DNA of 53,447 bases, counting the filler, from Ionaspis alba (lineage: Eukaryota): assembly GCA_964255285.1 (NCBI GenBank). It is 3 parts of 3 records of this genome, joined end to end, with 100 filler letters (N's around TTAATTAATTAA, not from the genome) between each part and the next. Parts side by side here need not be neighbours in the genome. Positions count along the whole stretch, not along the records: positions 35,780 to 53,447 come from CAXUUL010000314.1; 2 more parts are not named here. One strand, given 5' to 3'. Shown piece after piece: positions 41,201 through 47,202 of this stretch. The notes below the pieces were generated by a model, which was not told the origin of the DNA, made no database searches, and saw only the letters and a program-made list of their open reading frames with translations. The first letter of the stretch is position 1. Each line of letters begins with the position of its first letter. A program made the position numbers and the translations under genes.

Positions 41201-43802
41201 ATGCACTCCCATAAGACGCACAGGTCGCATTACTCTCTTTTCAAGTCCAACAGGTCGCAGGCTTCCTTGCTCAGCAACCAGAGCAACACCCAGGAGCGAG
41301 CTTCAACTTATCAGGTCTCACCTTTCGAGAGCCCCTTGGCTTCTCCGGCTCGTGGCACTTTTCCTTCCCAACAATCCACCGCGTCTTCCCCTCTAAGTCC
41401 AGACGACCGAGACAGAGACGACAGCTTGGCACGAACCTACGAGGTCGATGCTGCCAAGTTCTACCAGCAGAACAATAACATCCCTCGAAGGACGCAGAGT
41501 CAACGCACACCGCCGTTACAACGATCGAATCTTGGACCAACCATCAATCTAGTCGGGCCCACCCAAAGTGGTGGTGGCTCACCCACCATCGAGGAGGATC
41601 TTAATCCAGATTCATTCTACAGCCAACAGCCGCAACAACCTCCGGCAAAGACAGAGTTGAAAAAGAAACGGCGCTTTTTTGGCATTGGAGACTCATCCAG
41701 CTCACGCGATCAGCTCAACAATCTATCGTCAAATTCTACAAAAGGACTTGGGCGAAGCATATCAGTGCGGAAGGCGCCTCCACCGCAGGTTTCGACAAAG
41801 ATAGGATACGATCCTACCCAGCAACATTGGCAGTCAGGGTCGACCTCAGCGAAGCTTCCTCCGACCACATTCGATAACAGGCAGGACGCTGGGCAACGTT
41901 TGAATAATCCATACGATCATCCTTCCTCGTCAGATCCATTGACAACTCCCAAAGATCCTTCGAGATCGCCTGGCTTTCCCCACAACCCGGATCCGGACTA
42001 CTTTCACAACCAGTTACAGCCTACGAATTCCAACACAACGACAGGCCAATCTTACTCATCTGAATCAGCAAGCTCCCAGAAAACACCTGCTTGGGAACGG
42101 ATTGGAAGGGTTCCGAATCATCTTCGTACTTCCTCGACCGACCAACAGCAACAACATTTCCAAGCATTCCATCCAACACCTTCATCCGCGAGCTCTACAT
42201 CTAGTCACCCACTACCTTCCCGAAGCGCGCAAGATCTGATATACCAAGCTCAACACCACTCGCAAGGTAGTAGACCATCTTCTCGTCAATCCTACGACCC
42301 TCCAACTCCCCCACCTCACGCACCATATCACCATCGAACTTCCTCCTTCCAGTCGCCCGCACCATACCTAGAGGGCTCGATGGCTCCACCAGCGCAGCAC
42401 TCAAGTGCACGCAACACAGATTTTAATCAGCAGAGTCAACAGTCAGGATCTGGCAGGGAGAGCAATAACCATCAACAATATACACAGGGGTCAGGAGGAA
42501 ACCAATCTGGACAATCCTCCGGGCAATATGGTGCTCAACTTGGTGTGAATAATGCTCAAGGTGGCAATTATCGGAACACTCCTCAGACATCGCCCATGGT
42601 TCCACAAATTAGCAATTCTGACCAAGGTCGAAATACACCTCCGCCGACAAAATCAAGAGATGATTTATCCGGACTAGACATTAATCAATTGTTGCAACGA
42701 CATGAAGAACTTAGTGCGTCAACACACAGATATCGCAATCTTGACTTCTGGCTGACATACTCCAGATGATAAATACCGCAAAGTAAAAAAATACTACTTC
42801 GATAAAGACGCCCAAGTCCAACAACTCCAAAACACCCTCGCCCACCAACGCCTCGCCCAGTCCCGCACCTCCCTCGATGACAACGAATACGCCACCCGCT
42901 TCTCTCGCCTTGACGGCGCCATCAACAACCTCGCCTTCAACATCCGCAAAGACTGGCGCGCTGTCCCGCCATGGCTGGCCCCATATGTCAACCGCGACGC
43001 CACCACAAGCGTCACGAAAGAGATGACCGCCGTTGGCCGCGCCTGCATATCCCGCTGGCTCGTCGACGAACTCCTGGACCGCTACTTCCACCCCGCCCTC
43101 GAACCAAACCTAAGTTCCCAGCTCAAAATCATCGAGCGCAACCTGCGGCGCTTCGCCGCTCCCACACCCTCCGAAGAAGAAAAAGAAGCTCTCCTCTCCA
43201 AAATCAGTAACTGGCGCCTCGCTACCCTTGACGGCCTTGGCGATATGCTCGCCTCACCCGAAGCGGCCGAATATCGCAATCAACTCACTGATATTCTAGT
43301 CAAGATGCTCACCGCCGATCTGATGATGAACCTCAAGGACCCCGCACCCCCCGGCCTCGACGCAGGCGTCATCGGCATCGTCGAGCTTGCCGTCGGCATA
43401 GCCGCCAACCTCCCCCTCGAATCCCGCGACGTCTTCGTCGACTACGTCATGCCGGGTACACCCGTCAACGACACCTACATGAAAGTCGAAAGCGCTTTGC
43501 CCGTGCTGACCAACCCTGGGGAAAACGAAGCAGGCGATCGGGCTAGCGTGAACAGTGTGGAGGAGAAGGACGAGGCGGGTGAGGCGGAGGCGAAGGAGGC
43601 AGCGGCGGCGACGGCTCAGCAGGGAAGGAAGAAGGGGATCCTGGGGGGATTGATGAATAAGAAACAGGTGTCGACGGGGACGCCGCCGGGGAGTTCGAGA
43701 GGTCCGGAACCGCCGAAGGAGGAGAGGGTTAGGTTTGCGGCTTTTATGAGTGTGGAGGTTAGGGGGAAGAATATGCTTATTAAGGCGCCGGTTTATATAT
43801 AG
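41201..43802 (+). CDS. Conserved fungal protein with a long S/Q/P-rich disordered N-terminus and a helical C-terminal domain, 2 exons (41201-42713, 42766-43802), ~849 aa
   Basis: Intron GTGCGT..CTGAC..CAG joins to KYRKVKKYYF..QLQNTLAHQRLAQSRTSLDDNEY..RLDGAINNLAFNIRKDW, ending VEVRGKNMLIKAPVYI. I recall this family being labelled SAM-methyltransferase-like, but I see no SAM-binding motif. Confidence 0.85.
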
Positions 43803-44199: not shown

Positions 44200-45709
44200 C
44201 TACAGCTTTGCCTTAACCTCTGACCGCTCTCTCCCCCGCAAATCCATCTCCACCTCCTTTTCCAACTCCCTAACAGCCTCCTCCGTCTCCCCCAACCTCA
44301 CCCTCAAAGTCCTCATCCCCACCTCCCTCCCCATCCGACAATTCTCCCCAATATCATCCAAAAACAGCACCTCCCCCGGCCTCACACCACTCCCTCCTCT
44401 GCCCTTGTCAAAAGCATCCAACTCCTTAATCGCCAATTCATAGATCTTCCGATCGGGCTTGCGGATCCCGACCTCGGAGCTGGAGATGAAGACGTCGAAA
44501 AAGGATTGCAGGGTTTTGCGATCTGAGGCTGGCAGACCGGCTGAGCCTTCAGAAGAGGGGGTGGAGGTTGAGGGGCTGAAGTTGGTCTCTGAGAATGGAT
44601 GTCCGGGTGGGAAGGTGATGGTATTCGAGAGCGCACCCAGAATGAACTTCTTCGAGGCGGAGAGAGATTGCAGTGCTGGGAAGATGTGAGGGTCTGGGGC
44701 GCGGGAGATGGTCATCATGGCCCAGAAAAGAGCGGAGGCGTCGATTGAGGGGGTGGGAGGAATAGACTCTGAGTTCGAAGAGATGGGCGAGGAGGCGGCA
44801 CCGCGGTCGTTTTCAGTGGGTGAGGAATCGGCAGTTTCGGCCTTCAGGCTGACCGGATCGCCGAGCATGGTTGGGTTTTGTTTGGCGAGGTCTTTGAGAC
44901 TTTTGTGGGCGGTCGAGGTGGATGAGGGTGGTGATTGCTGCGCTCCTCTGTCATGGTTTGTGGGAGAGGAATCGGCGGCTTCGGCTTTGAGACTGACTGG
45001 GTCGCCGAGGAGGGTGGGGTTTTCTTTTGCTAGGTCTTTGAGCTTTTTCGGTTGCTCGTTACTTGAAGGTGCTTTGGAGGGGTTGCTGGAAGAGGATGAG
45101 GAGGACTGAGCTCCTTTGTCTTGTTCTGTTGGAGAGGAGTCTGCGGTCTCTGCTTTGAGACTGACAGGATCACCTAGCATCGTCGGATTCTCCATAGCAA
45201 GATCCTTCAGCTTCTTGGGTGGCTGCTTGCTCTCCTGGCCTGAGGGAATTAAATTTTGTTCGGTTGAACCGGGTGACTGAGCACCTCTGTCATGATTCGT
45301 AGGTGTAGAATCAGCAGTTTCCGCCTTCAAACTGACCGGATCCCCCAGCTGTGTAGGATTGGCAATATCCTTGAGTCTCTTTTTCCCAGCCTTGAAACCA
45401 GTGCGGTGAAACTCTTCCCAAAGTCTAGGATTTTCTAGGTCTGCTTTGAACCCTTTGAAGAAGTCATCGTCGAGTTTTATCTCTCCTCGTTCGAGCCGTT
45501 GCCAACTGCCATTTGGAGCAGAGCGGGAGATGGCGAAGTTGATCCAATCTTTGGGGATGTTATTTTTCTTCTCGTAGTCAACAATGGCTTGGAATGGTGA
45601 TGCTACCTGGGGAACGTCAGTATCCTGTGCTTAGAATCGTTATGGCCGAAGGATGGAGACAAACACAAACACCACCAATGTCGAACAGGATTGCTTTTGG
45701 AGGAGCCAT
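44200..45709 (-). CDS. HAD-like hydrolase (epoxide hydrolase/ACAD10 N-terminal type) with four internal repeats and C-terminal PTS1 (AKL), 2 exons (45665-45709, 44200-45606), ~483 aa
   Basis: Motif I ILFDIGGV, cap WQRLERGE, motif II ALSNT, motif III FDVFISSSEVGIRKPD, motif IV FLDDIGEN. Ends KAKL*. Confidence 0.9.
44795..45385 (-). repeat. Four in-frame repeats of about 35 aa, LKD(L/I)A..NPTxLGDPVSLKAE(T/A)ADS(S/T)PTxxD(R/K)GA
   Basis: The NPT codons start at 45360, 45189, 45021 and 44877 (spacing 171/168/144 nt). LGDPVSLKAE is invariant. Confidence 0.93.
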
Positions 45710-46141: not shown

Positions 46142-47202
46142 ATGCCTGTCGGAATCATTCAAGTGAGCGAACATACGCTGAAACATATGCACGACGCACT
46201 AACCTCGAAGCATCAAGCCCTCGAATCAAATCAAACTTACCAATGTTTCCCTAGTCCGACTGAAGAAAGGTCAGCTTATACCGACAGCTTGCAGTATTGC
46301 CTGGTTGGAAACTGATATTTGATCTCCAATCAGGCAAGAAAAGGTTCGAAATAGCCTGCTACAAAAACAAAGTCCTGGAATACCGCTCCGGCATCGAAAC
46401 CGACCTAGACAACGTCCTCCAAATCCCCTCCGTCTTCCTGAACGTCAGCAAAGGCCAAACGGCGCCCGCCTCCGACCTTGCCAAAGTCTTCGGCGCCAAA
46501 ACTTCCATAAATGATATCATCCTCGAGATCCTCAAAAAGGGCGAACTGCAGGTTGGAGACAAGGAACGACATGCGCAGCTAGAAAGGGTGCATAATGAGG
46601 TTATCGATATCGTTGCGGGCAAGCTGGTGGATCCGAAGAGCAAGAGAGTGTACACTACGGGTATGATTGAGAAGGCGCTGGATCAGCTGAGCAGTCAGGG
46701 TGCGCATAAGCAGGAGGAGGGGAAGGGGAGCGGTACTGCTACACCGACAACGGGTGAACAGGATGATGAGAGTGGAAAGGCGAAGGCTAAAGACATGCCG
46801 ACGTGGACGGGCGTGGTGACGACGAAGTCGGCGAAGAGTCAAGCGTTGGAAGCCATGAAGGCGCTTATTGCGTGGCAGCCGATTCCTGTCTCGAGGGCTA
46901 GGATGAGATTACGCGTGTCTTGTCCCATGGCTATTTTGAAGCAGGCGGCTAAGCCTGCGCCGAAGAAGGATGGCGGGGAGGGAGCGGATGCGGATGGAGA
47001 GAAGCAGAAGGGGACGGTCAAGGATAGGATATTGAGCTACGTGGAGGAGATTGAGTCTCAAGGTGAGATGGGGTCTGAATGGGAAGTCGTGGGATTTGTG
47101 GAACCGGGCGCCTTCAAAGGTTTGGGAGAGTTTGTTGGTGGGGAGACGAAGGGGAGAGGTAGGGTGGAGGTCTTGGATATGGCTGTTGTGCATGAAGACT
47201 AA
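46142..47202 (+). CDS. SDO1: Ribosome maturation factor Sdo1/SBDS, 3 exons (46142-46162, 46218-46269, 46334-47202), ~313 aa
   Basis: [71 protein letters not shown]. Confidence 0.95.

Follow-up and report, generated by a model that had tools for sequence, protein, structure and literature searches.

The HAD-fold domains of human EPHX2, whose N-terminal domain is a lipid phosphatase, and of ACAD10 are the closest described relatives of the enzyme reported here, and in both the cap shapes the substrate pocket (according to the available excerpt of bioRxiv 10.1101/2025.09.10.675409). For the repeats that this enzyme carries, the closest described systems include the group of ascomycete DPR dehydrin-like proteins (TbDHN1, A. 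fumigatus DprA/DprB and Alternaria AbDhn1-3), which are hydrophilic and disordered and consist of a conserved short repeat, variable in copy number and separated by variable linkers. Their signature is [GRK]-[PV]-H-x-[ST]-x3-N-phi-phi-D-P-[RTP]-V-D-[SN] (Abba et al. 2006, PMC1550403). These proteins are linked to peroxisomes, as seen from the co-localisation of DprA/B and AbDhn1/2 with DsRed-SKL (available parts of PMC3103405 and PMC3788798), and DprA/B are reported in the available part of PMC3788798 to have no targeting signal. Hydrophilins and LEA proteins resemble the repeat proteins in composition and disorder, and hydrophilins are delimited by Gly >6% and a hydrophilicity index >1.0 (available part of PMC11277543). 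What is new here, on the evidence of sequence comparison, is a family of unannotated proteins with a predicted peroxisomal location and, in one lineage, a fusion to an enzyme.

The gene lies at 44200-45709 of the window, by which we mean the whole 53,447-nt stretch of Ionaspis alba DNA that was analysed (filler included), on the minus strand, as do all the features given below. Open reading frame analysis and translation give two exons and a spliced product of 483 aa, a PTS1-bearing HAD hydrolase ending in AKL, with relatives at E 8.6e-191 and weaker. The start codon ATG is at 45709 and the spliced frame has no internal stop. Exon 1 (45665..45709, MAPPKAILFDIGGVC) encodes an N-terminus identical to that of relatives such as P0016. 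It is followed by an intron of 58 nt (45607..45664, GTTTGT...CAG, with a TACTGAC branch-like site), the splicing of which we infer from the DNA sequence itself and from relatives, in whose N-termini GGVC is joined to V(A/V)SPFQ at the junction. Exon 2 (44200-45606) ends in KAKL and the stop codon (44200-44202). The terminal AKL (44203..44211; among relatives, K471 and L472 hardly vary) is, with the stop, of the C-terminal tripeptide type [SAC]-[KRH]-[LM], and a PTS1-like tripeptide by the broader pattern [SAPCGT][KRH][LMIF], which takes in 72 of the 8000 possible tripeptides, also ends 121 of 124 HAD-type relatives. The peroxisomal signal claimed in a preliminary description of this DNA was thus found again, and the enzyme is predicted to be peroxisome-targeted, a location judged from its last three residues.

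The enzyme belongs with the HAD-fold hydrolases, and among them with the soluble-epoxide-hydrolase-N-terminal / ACAD10-HAD type. In Pfam, PF00702, which has a cut-off of 26.4 bits, scored 28.8 over residues 370-434 (E 2e-06), and PF13419 scored 20.1, under its cut-off of 23.8. Of the solved structures, the N-terminal lipid-phosphatase domain of human EPHX2 was the best match by sequence (5mwa_A, E 1e-09), and EPHX2 was also the top fold match (5alj, E 1.1e-05), the best Foldseek matches being sEH entries and other capped HAD enzymes. Several of the relatives are named “epoxide hydrolase” or “Acyl-CoA dehydrogenase member 10” by their sources. The AlphaFold2 model, made from exon 2 only and hence without the first strand, has a Rossmann-like core, mostly with pLDDT above 90, and a helical cap after motif I. 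Core, helical cap and motifs II-IV are shared with the EPHX2 and ACAD10 domains: motif II is LSNT (44620..44631), nearly invariant in 139 aligned relatives, the motif III lysine stands in RKP (44455..44463; R386, K387 and P388 invariant in the same set) and motif IV, FLDDIG (44347..44364), aligns to FLDDIG of human sEH. The Ser/Thr of motif II, the Lys of motif III and the acidic pair of motif IV are all present, and invariant or nearly so across the 139. Motif I, FDIGGV in exon 1 (45668-45685), aligns via the relative P0467 to FDLDGV of human sEH and keeps the nucleophile Asp, but the second Asp (Asp+2) is not present in the window's enzyme, where Gly takes its place. This difference from EPHX2 belongs to the whole fungal subfamily, as Gly occupies the position (FDIGGV or FDMGGV) in 14 of 14 proteins with an intact N-terminus among the 102-326 aa matches listed. 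Asp+2 is the general acid/base of HAD phosphatases; with Gly in its place the phosphatase chemistry is not assured. The protein is also unlike EPHX2 and ACAD10 in being a single-domain enzyme with a PTS1, in the 207-aa repeat insert of its cap and in a second, smaller Ser/Pro-rich loop downstream of motif II (44524..44607), which most aligned relatives lack and in which pLDDT is <50 at residues 351-357.

The large insert is a disordered segment that alignment against insert-free relatives places at 44764..45384, between cap helices (64-78 and 294-305 in the AlphaFold2 model, P0001 numbering). The preliminary description had spoken of about 200 aa containing four copies of a peptide with an invariant LGDPVSLKAE; we found four repeats of 36-38 aa in which 26 of 38 alignment columns are invariant, that string included. 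They are repeat 1 (KRLKDIA--NPTQLGDPVSLKAETADSTPTNHDRGAQS, 45274..45381, HMM 84.3 bits), repeat 2 (45103..45216, 91.8 bits), repeat 3 (44935..45048, 90.9 bits) and repeat 4 (44791..44904, 89.0 bits), with the consensus K-x-LKD-LA-x-x-NP-T-x-LGDPVSLKAE-x-x-D-S-x-PT-x-x-DRGA. Repeat 1 has a 2-residue deletion at profile positions 8-9 that is shared by about 70% of HAD-embedded repeats. At the DNA level the 84-nt repeat cores are just 71-76% identical to the reference copy, and the codons differ exactly as had been claimed (Gly GGG/GGT/GGC/GGC, Pro CCG/CCT/CCA/CCG, Leu TTG/CTC/CTC/CTG, Ala GCG/GCA/GCC/GCC). Tandem Repeats Finder missed the array because the copies are too diverged and are split by variable linkers, although a separate repeat search of the DNA did recover them. 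Six-frame translation of the whole window did not find the motif elsewhere in it. By the Nei-Gojobori method the six repeat pairs have pS of 0.61-1.03 and pN of 0.10-0.17, and dN/dS is 0.149 for repeats 3 and 4, the remaining five pairs being too saturated for dS correction. Saturated synonymous sites together with low pN indicate copies that are old and constrained at the protein level, again as first described, and this substitution pattern shows, as judged from DNA, that the array is translated and that purifying selection on it is strong.

The same figures bear on the possibility that the insert is spliced from some transcripts, as an in-frame exitron or by other alternative splicing, so that the four-repeat protein would be a minor isoform or none at all. 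Removal of a coding segment by an alternative event has been documented for the unrelated dehydrin-like AbDhn2 (available part of PMC3788798). Among the enzyme's own relatives, gene model P0395 of Usnea florida, 277 aa in length, is without exactly the repeat segment that is present in its family relative Alectoria P0049, and another short Lecanoromycete gene model, Stictis P0425, has an unrelated loop and no repeats. These two repeat-free models imply that the insert is not indispensable, or that it is maybe spliced out in some species. However, pN is far under pS, the reading frame is open over all 621 nt of the insert, and the 124 HAD-type relatives of the first set, among the matches listed, carry 1-5 repeats each, in all 124 in frame. 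A scan found no GTRNGY donor in the insert or at its edge and no in-frame donor/acceptor pair, though it was a crude one, which also misses the gene's real first-intron donor, GTTTGT. Moreover, 621 nt would be long for an intron of a filamentous ascomycete. Splicing of this kind therefore seems highly improbable to us as an account of the array.

The distribution of the insert among relatives is uneven. Our homologue lists give the best 120 of 371, 525 and 212 matches, and what we say on taxonomy draws on those listed rows that carry names, a minority. The named insert-bearing HAD-type relatives (five taxa checked) we take to be Lecanoromycetes, and among the matches listed enzyme-embedded repeats occur in Lecanoromycetes and in one decayed Dothideomycete protein, Cryomyces P0130, which consists of a HAD cap remnant, two repeats and a terminal PKL. 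Insert-free relatives come from a search limited to 102-326 aa, whose listed matches include 14 proteins of 263-294 aa in which the N-terminus is intact. At the insert site each of the 14 shows just a short loop and zero repeats, in keeping with the earlier statement that this subfamily normally has a short loop there. Thirteen of them belong to other fungal classes, and 13 still end in a PTS1-like tripeptide.

The preliminary description had also mentioned small stand-alone fungal proteins built from this motif, and these turned out to be real and present in large numbers, with hundreds of two-repeat proteins of 90-200 aa in Dothideomycetes, Leotiomycetes and Chaetothyriales. A four-repeat profile search of 1.84 billion proteins gave 221 cluster representatives at E<=0.001 (130 at E<=1e-10), so that the motif is conserved in other species, and searching a word index of proteins shorter than 259 aa yielded 525 matches (best 120 listed). 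Both the free and the HAD-fused forms were recovered. Out of 365 proteins collected in the repeat searches, 241 are not HAD-type, with a median of 119 aa, and 198 of these 241 have two repeats. PTS1-like endings are found in 215 of them (SKL 114, SKI 35, PKM 31, PKL 15, and others), that is, in 215 of 230 free repeat proteins once 11 truncated HAD gene models are subtracted. The targeting signal of the mini-proteins themselves is new with respect to the preliminary description, and as almost all of them have their own, the repeat module itself would appear to be peroxisome-linked. The free form is shown by these comparisons to be little more than two repeats and a putative PTS1, in other classes of Pezizomycotina. 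In Hyaloscypha, the enzyme (P0467) and the mini-protein (P0202) are encoded as separate proteins.

We compared the profiles of 433 full-length repeats, 252 enzyme-embedded and 181 free. In either set, conservation is 85-100% at each of the positions N10, L14, G15, D16, V18, S19, L20, K21, A22 and E23, as well as P29, T30, D33 and G35, with K21 and E23 at 97-99%, and the linkers between repeats are free to vary in length and sequence. The first and second repeats of the free proteins can be told apart (118 of 144 and 105 of 144, respectively, are nearest to their own kind), and the free repeat nearest to the enzyme repeats is the first for 107 and the second for 166. Either a two-repeat gene was inserted into the enzyme, or the mini-proteins may derive from an insert-bearing HAD protein through loss of the core. 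Against Pfam, the insert and 144 mini-proteins yielded only scattered matches below the curated cut-offs, and the literature search with the repeat motif strings found no paper printing or describing the motif, which agrees with the initial view that no characterised domain explains the repeat. Keyword searches of the literature surfaced papers on DPR dehydrin-like proteins and reviews, none of them on the LGDPVSLKAE repeat. One source names P0202 an “SMP domain-containing protein”, an assignment that Pfam did not reproduce.

The predicted structures are those of flexible segments. In the AlphaFold2 model of the enzyme, the 10-residue pLDDT means of the insert run from 39 to 74, there is one short helix within it (residues 137-143, in repeat 2), and the repeats are not predicted to dock onto the core. 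This is relevant to the idea of a cis-acting cap element, in which the insert would gate or occupy the HAD active site as a pseudo- or phospho-substrate or as a flexible lid. The insert is located in the cap, the part that shapes the substrate pocket in this class of HAD enzymes, and every repeat has conserved Ser/Thr residues. Against it, besides the absence of a docked conformation, the repeats are equally conserved in hundreds of enzyme-free proteins and their copy number varies from 1 to 5. A tethered phospho-substrate is further disfavoured by the occurrence of the module free of the enzyme and by the lack of the second catalytic Asp, the general acid of HAD phosphatases, in the whole subfamily. 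We consider a role in cis very unlikely. Still harder to credit, in our opinion, is a precursor from which cleavage at Lys-rich sites would free four similar peptides. The units are repeated and each follows basic residues (KKR, PKK, PKK and HKS for copies 1-4, the lysines noted at the outset), but a K-R pair is found at repeat 1 only, a 38-aa unit is long, and the flanking halves of the enzyme are conserved and fold as one domain in the AlphaFold2 model. The protein begins with a strand of the HAD core, with no secretion leader recognisable by eye, and ends in a PTS1; such an N-terminus, and peroxisomal targeting that bypasses the secretory proteases, speak against processing.

The mini-protein model has a pTM of 0.20 and two helices (9-19 and 86-96), each immediately before NPxxLGDP. 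The ESM Atlas model has pLDDT 0.55, only Ascomycota “hypothetical protein” clusters were matched there, and no structural neighbour came up to TM 0.3. A prediction of the complex between the insert-free enzyme P0467 and the mini-protein P0202 gave no answer for or against binding (scores 0.00 and 0.00, with alignments unused and the partner fold uncertain). Disorder of the mini-proteins and of the insert would suit a peroxisomal protectant of the hydrophilin or LEA type, a non-specific molecular shield or water-replacement polymer that protects matrix enzymes in drying, freezing or oxidative stress, the fusion simply protecting the HAD enzyme. The composition of the mini-proteins points the same way (median GRAVY -1.23, Gly 8.0%, Ser+Thr 19.8%, Cys and Trp nearly nil), and 99 of 144 have both Gly >6% and hydrophilicity >1, the limits given for hydrophilins in the available part of PMC11277543; with so many of them hydrophilin-like, a non-specific protective role suits the composition equally well. 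Lichens and rock-inhabiting and black yeast-like fungi are, moreover, among the named carriers in the matches listed (e.g., Cryomyces, Friedmanniomyces, Elasticomyces, Aureobasidium, Exophiala), but this list is biased by which genomes are named and also contains ordinary plant pathogens and Helotiales. The insert of the window has a GRAVY of -1.07 and just 4.8% Gly, and so misses the glycine limit. About 14 residues that are near-invariant across four classes, Gly, Pro and a single Lys included, exceed what a composition-driven role needs, and a core rich in Pro and Gly, rather than in helix formers, is incompatible with the long amphipathic helix by which LEA motifs are characterised. Pfam gave no LEA or SMP match in the insert and the 144 mini-proteins, and the plant dehydrin K-segment pattern [KR]-[LIM]-K-[DE]-K-[LIM]-P-G occurs in 0 of 483 proteins. 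Protectant motifs are, however, also strongly conserved at times, dehydrin K-segments being an example. On balance we judge protection somewhat unlikely, but an alternative to be taken seriously.

The repeat family has the hydrophilic, disordered, repeat-and-linker architecture of the DPR proteins, with the same kind of conserved short repeat in variable copy number. Nevertheless, identity with them was rejected, as neither the strict signature nor its core DP[RTP]VD[SN] is present in any of 483 proteins, the window protein included, a comparison made by the published signature pattern. The repeat family also carries a PTS1, unlike DprA/B as reported in the available part of PMC3788798.

The account that we prefer, tentatively, is that the cap loop of the enzyme has acquired a disordered array whose repeats are a multivalent docking peptide for a partner in the peroxisomal matrix. 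Multivalent binding is also the best fit among the functions listed at the outset, and multivalent docking in the matrix is the most likely function that we can suggest for the repeats. Each repeat would be a short linear docking element, combining a short amphipathic helix with an NP/GDP turn and the invariant SLKAE, that would fold on and bind a conserved matrix partner. The PTS1 would bring the carrier into the matrix, where two to five copies could make it a multivalent carrier able to cluster, retain or co-import that partner, and in lichen-forming fungi the module would be hard-wired to the HAD enzyme, physically linking the latter to the partner of the mini-proteins. The fusion could also be an evolutionary accident without functional coupling. 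A more specific version, which we regard as unlikely, makes LGDPVSLKAE a dedicated matrix docking motif and the mini-proteins piggy-back import adaptors or scaffolds for a signal-less client, the lichen fungi having fused the adaptor to a lipid-phosphatase-like HAD protein. Catalase would be a candidate client, as would the DPR dehydrin-like proteins, which are associated with peroxisomes and lack a signal. If this were true, the HAD enzyme would be tied to the client of the mini-proteins, a disordered-protein family may have been born from, or captured by, the cap loop of an enzyme, and the decayed Cryomyces protein would represent an intermediate that has survived.

Nearly all proteins of the peroxisomal matrix are enzymes, and a widely conserved, disordered and unannotated family made up in essence of two invariant peptide motifs and a PTS1 stands apart from them. 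The lichen fusion may be a Rosetta-stone-type hint at the working partner of the module, with natural variants that have from 0 to 5 copies, and the alignments suffice to define a Pfam-style family now. Should the module dock a partner, it would give a handle on the organisation of the crowded matrix or on the entry of proteins without a signal; should it protect instead, organisms known to withstand drying would have in it a hydrophilin directed to the peroxisome.

The invariant SLKAE also allows the repeats to be read as a modification platform, with a SUMO-type acceptor and an acidic Ser/Thr patch (CK2-like, T-x-x-D) that would be modified in the cytosol and so control how the carrier is imported, retained or turned over. 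By the consensus rules for SUMO acceptors and CK2 sites, LKAE is psi-K-x-[DE], and it is present in all four repeats (residues 97, 154, 210 and 258, P0001 numbering), the Lys and Glu being the nearly invariant K21 and E23 of the profile. The repeat profile also matched P0346, with six PPVSIKAEIxDSSETE units (E 1e-10), which we take to be an unrelated, zinc-finger-like animal protein. However, the SUMO consensus covers only 4 of about 26 conserved positions, and the SUMO machinery acts in the cytosol and nucleus, where matrix proteins stay only briefly, so that this reading appears quite unlikely.

A last resemblance, to the HR1 domain of TOCA-family F-BAR proteins (FNBP1L, CIP4), extends over about 20 residues at the turn between the helices, where K-M-KD-V-Y-E-K-NP-Q-M-GDP-S-SL of HR1 aligns with K-L-KD-L-A-K-E-NP-T-L-GDP-V-SL of the repeat. 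Two HR1 entries were the only matches of the repeat profile to PDB sequences, both sub-threshold (5frg, E 0.33; 2ke4, E 1.4), and Pfam HR1_TOCA matched 4 of 144 mini-proteins under its cut-off (best E 0.0013). With all matches sub-threshold and no second long helix predicted, we rejected the repeat as a TOCA-type HR1 domain. The HR1 segment comprises the end of helix 1, the loop and the start of helix 2, and the resemblance at most suggests a common geometry of helix end and turn.

The interval 44200-45709 on the minus strand corresponds to exactly one gene, with its start ATG at 45709 (opening MAPPKAILFDIGGVC). Unspliced, the reading frame from this ATG runs into a stop codon, and what we infer is a two-exon splice over a 58 nt intron at 45607-45664 (minus strand, GTTTGT...CAG, with a TACTGAC branch-like site), followed by a long open frame on the same strand that ends in KAKL-stop at 44200. 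In sequence comparisons the exon junction, between GGVC and VASPFQ, matches the N-termini of relatives, e.g., protein P0016 of our analysis. The spliced product has 483 aa and no internal stops. The query used in our searches (P0001) was the direct translation of exon 2 (472 aa), in which residues 1-4 are intronic and the 15 residues of exon 1 are absent. The intron interrupts the gene directly after motif I, its GTTTGT donor is missed by the standard GTRNGY pattern, and many database models of relatives begin at an internal Met downstream, thereby lacking exon 1. The neighboring plus-strand frames, at 46264-47202 (a ribosome-maturation protein of the SBDS family, in which Pfam detects all three SBDS domains) and at 42756-43802 (348 aa, no Pfam match), have no evident tie to this gene.

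The insert contains four repeats of 36-38 aa each (R1-R4, minus strand, 45274-45381, 45103-45216, 44935-45048, and 44791-44904), and the motif was not found outside this array in a six-frame translation of the window. Their alignment has 26 invariant columns out of 38, LGDPVSLKAE among them, while at the nucleotide level the cores share only 71-76% identity with the reference copy; Tandem Repeats Finder, run on the window, did not report the array. The codon differences pointed out in the preliminary description proved correct, as did its view that the copies are old and constrained at the protein level, since pS ranges from 0.61 to 1.03 and pN from 0.10 to 0.17 among the six repeat pairs (Nei-Gojobori). 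As for the dN/dS comparison that it had suggested, five of the pairs are saturated, past correction, and R3-R4 gives 0.149. This pattern of divergence, together with the pS and pN counts, therefore settles that the insert is translated and selected as protein, at least in enough of the transcripts to matter for function, and we consider it very unlikely that the segment is simply spliced out.

Apart from an unusual motif I, the host enzyme is a typical representative of a known fold. The single Pfam family recognized was that of the HAD hydrolases, within the C-terminal portion (PF00702, 28.8 bits, cut-off 26.4), and the nearest solved structure was the N-terminal lipid-phosphatase domain of human soluble epoxide hydrolase, both by sequence (5mwa_A, E 1e-09) and by fold (5alj, E 1.1e-05). 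Motifs II (LSNT), III (RKP), and IV (FLDDIG) can all be identified, and the relatives conserve them. Motif I (45668-45685, minus strand) reads FDIGGV, whereas the human enzyme has FDLDGV; the nucleophile Asp is retained and the second Asp is replaced by Gly, both here and in all 14 relatives examined with an intact N-terminus. Throughout this fungal PTS1-HAD subfamily (relatives P0395-P0483) motif I is FDIGGV or FDMGGV. The Asp at position +2 is the general acid of HAD phosphatases, and given its replacement phosphatase chemistry is not assured; the enzyme may be something other than a conventional phosphatase. A recent preprint (bioRxiv 10.1101/2025.09.10.675409) attributes ether-lipid phosphatase activity to the related HAD domain of ACAD10, which it describes as resembling that of EPHX2. 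In the AlphaFold2 model, built from an alignment of 139 relatives, the enzyme core is confident (pLDDT mostly above 90) and residues 79-285 form a disordered insert (10-residue pLDDT means of 39-74) with one short helix (137-143). The model places it between the cap helices 64-78 and 294-305, in agreement with the original assignment to the cap between motifs I and II. A second, smaller Ser/Pro-rich loop after motif II (44524-44607, PGHPFSETNFSPSTSTPSSEGSAGLPAS) also has low model confidence and is absent from most aligned relatives.

The whole-protein search gave 371 matches, the best 120 of which were considered; our taxonomic statements on homologues are based on the named minority of the matches listed. 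The named ones among these 120 are all, we take it, lichen-forming Lecanoromycetes; lineages were checked for Xylographa, Lasallia, Usnea, Teloschistes, and (from a later search) Stictis, spanning three subclasses. An HMM of the window repeats found at least one repeat in all 124 HAD-type proteins of the first set (one in 58, two in 41, three in 14, four in nine, and five in two), and 121 of them have a PTS1-like tripeptide at the C-terminus. In the consensus of the 139 relatives the insert consists of one good repeat, often with GDH for GDP, and a decayed second one (SLSKLAKDTTIGDPVSLESE), a pattern found among named matches in Lecanoromycetidae such as Alectoria. The first repeat of this consensus reads LGDHVSLKAE, His being found there in 49% of the HAD-embedded repeats; P0049 (from Alectoria), P0326, and P0354 exemplify the His-bearing first or decayed second repeat. 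Inserts of three to five copies were found in named proteins of Xylographa, Umbilicaria, Lasallia, and Agyrium, as well as in the window protein. R1 lacks two residues at profile positions 8-9, where ca. 70% of the HAD-embedded repeats have a gap. Because the identical deletion occurs in the first repeats of P0016 and P0049, the ancestral insert would have had two repeats, the second of which was presumably amplified in the lineage of the window.

A search with the C-terminal core only, against proteins of 102-326 aa, gave 212 matches. The best 120 included 14 proteins whose N-terminus is intact (263-294 aa); each of them is free of repeats and has only a short loop at the insert site, and 13 of the 14 have a PTS1-like end. 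Ten of them are named: Rasamsonia, two Thermoascus species, Lepidopterella, Dendryphion, Massarina, Bogoriella, Hyaloscypha bicolor, Sclerophora, and Usnea florida. Two Lecanoromycete gene models are repeat-free. The one from Stictis (P0425) starts after motif I and has a Gly/Asp/Glu loop unrelated to the repeat, and the one from Usnea florida (P0395, 277 aa) lacks exactly the repeat segment of the related Alectoria protein, for which a genuine loss is one explanation and removal by splicing, in the gene model or in the cell, the other. Among named matches, then, the repeat appears embedded in the enzyme cap almost only in Lecanoromycetes.

The observation itself holds, and so does the interpretation given with it: the small stand-alone fungal proteins that the preliminary description mentioned do exist, and the repeat HMM search that it proposed recovered both free and HAD-fused forms. 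The window insert gave 525 matches to proteins under 259 aa, and the repeat profile gave 221 at E ≤ 0.001 (130 at E ≤ 1e-10) against 1.84 billion representatives. A typical mini-protein has 90-150 aa: after the start Met come two repeats joined by a variable linker, then some ten residues and a terminal SKL. Among the matches listed, the named carriers include Dothideomycetes (Aureobasidium, Zymoseptoria, Cercospora, Fulvia, Friedmanniomyces, and others), Leotiomycetes (Hyaloscypha, Cadophora, Mollisia, Diplocarpon), and Chaetothyriales (Exophiala, Neophaeococcomyces). Two repeats were found in 198 of the 241 non-HAD proteins and a PTS1-like tripeptide in 215, or 215 of 230 once 11 truncated HAD gene models, without PTS1, are set aside; the pattern used covers only 72 of 8000 tripeptides, and such endings are therefore overwhelmingly enriched. 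Across 433 full-length repeats, ca. 14 positions are 85-100% conserved, in both the enzyme-embedded and the free copies. The first and second repeats of the free proteins can be told apart across taxa, so that the two-repeat architecture must itself be old. Hyaloscypha illustrates the unfused state, with an insert-free enzyme (P0467) and a separate mini-protein (P0202). A 205 aa protein from the dothideomycete Cryomyces antarcticus (P0130) has at its N-terminus a decayed HAD cap lacking motif I, followed by two good repeats, the beginning of the post-insert helix, and PKL; this single case, on a 4-kb contig, could represent an intermediate in evolution between the embedded form and the free one, or else a paralogue resembling a pseudogene. 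The existence of a free-standing family weakens the idea of a lid or pseudo-substrate acting in cis on the enzyme, which we regard as improbable.

The repeat constitutes an unannotated family whose conservation spans classes, and the PTS1-like ends of its carriers link it to peroxisomes. No characterized domain that would explain it was found in Pfam, with no family above cut-off on the window insert or on 144 mini-proteins; the ESM Atlas contains the family solely as "hypothetical protein," and literature searches by motif strings and keywords found, within the library searched, no paper printing or describing it. Among solved structures the sole resemblance, sub-threshold and ca. 20 residues long, was to HR1 domains of the TOCA family, at their inter-helix turn. 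In FNBP1L and CIP4 (PDB 5frg, 2ke4) the segment K-M-KD-V-Y-E-K-NP-Q-M-GDP-S-SL resembles the repeat over its first 20 residues, below threshold yet visually striking. We take this likeness as a common helix-end/turn geometry rather than as homology. A fungal dehydrin-like DPR repeat was our first idea, because DprA/DprB and AbDhn1/2 are described as repeat-bearing disordered proteins observed at peroxisomes (PMC3103405, PMC3788798). The DPR signature (PMC1550403) occurred in none of the 483 proteins, and neither did the plant dehydrin K-segment. We would rank the family among those disordered ascomycete proteins that bear repeats and are associated with stress or with peroxisomes, with a real chance of something more specific.

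The module combines an invariant core, free linkers, two to five copies, and a PTS1 nearly always alongside; it is predicted to be disordered (AlphaFold2 and Atlas models), with a short helix just ahead of each NPxxLGDP. Our tentative preference, held with somewhat less than even confidence, is for a multivalent short-linear-motif module brought into the peroxisomal matrix, where each unit would fold onto a conserved partner, and the fusion in lichens would have put this docking capacity on the HAD enzyme. A hydrophilin-like protectant is a less probable alternative, rather doubtful though far from negligible: 99 of the 144 mini-proteins have a hydrophilin composition and stress-tolerant fungi are numerous among the carriers, but the window insert itself lacks such a composition. 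A precursor of processed peptides seems extremely unlikely. A platform for SUMO or phospho-modification is slightly less improbable than the cis-acting lid, given the psi-K-x-E core and acidic Ser/Thr tail of the repeats and the profile match (E 1e-10) to P0346, an otherwise unrelated protein of 214 aa with six PPVSIKAEIxDSSETE units. What P0346 shares with the repeat profile is the psi-K-x-E motif and an acidic Ser-rich tail, and its N-terminus, read by eye, has a zinc-finger-like Cys/His segment.
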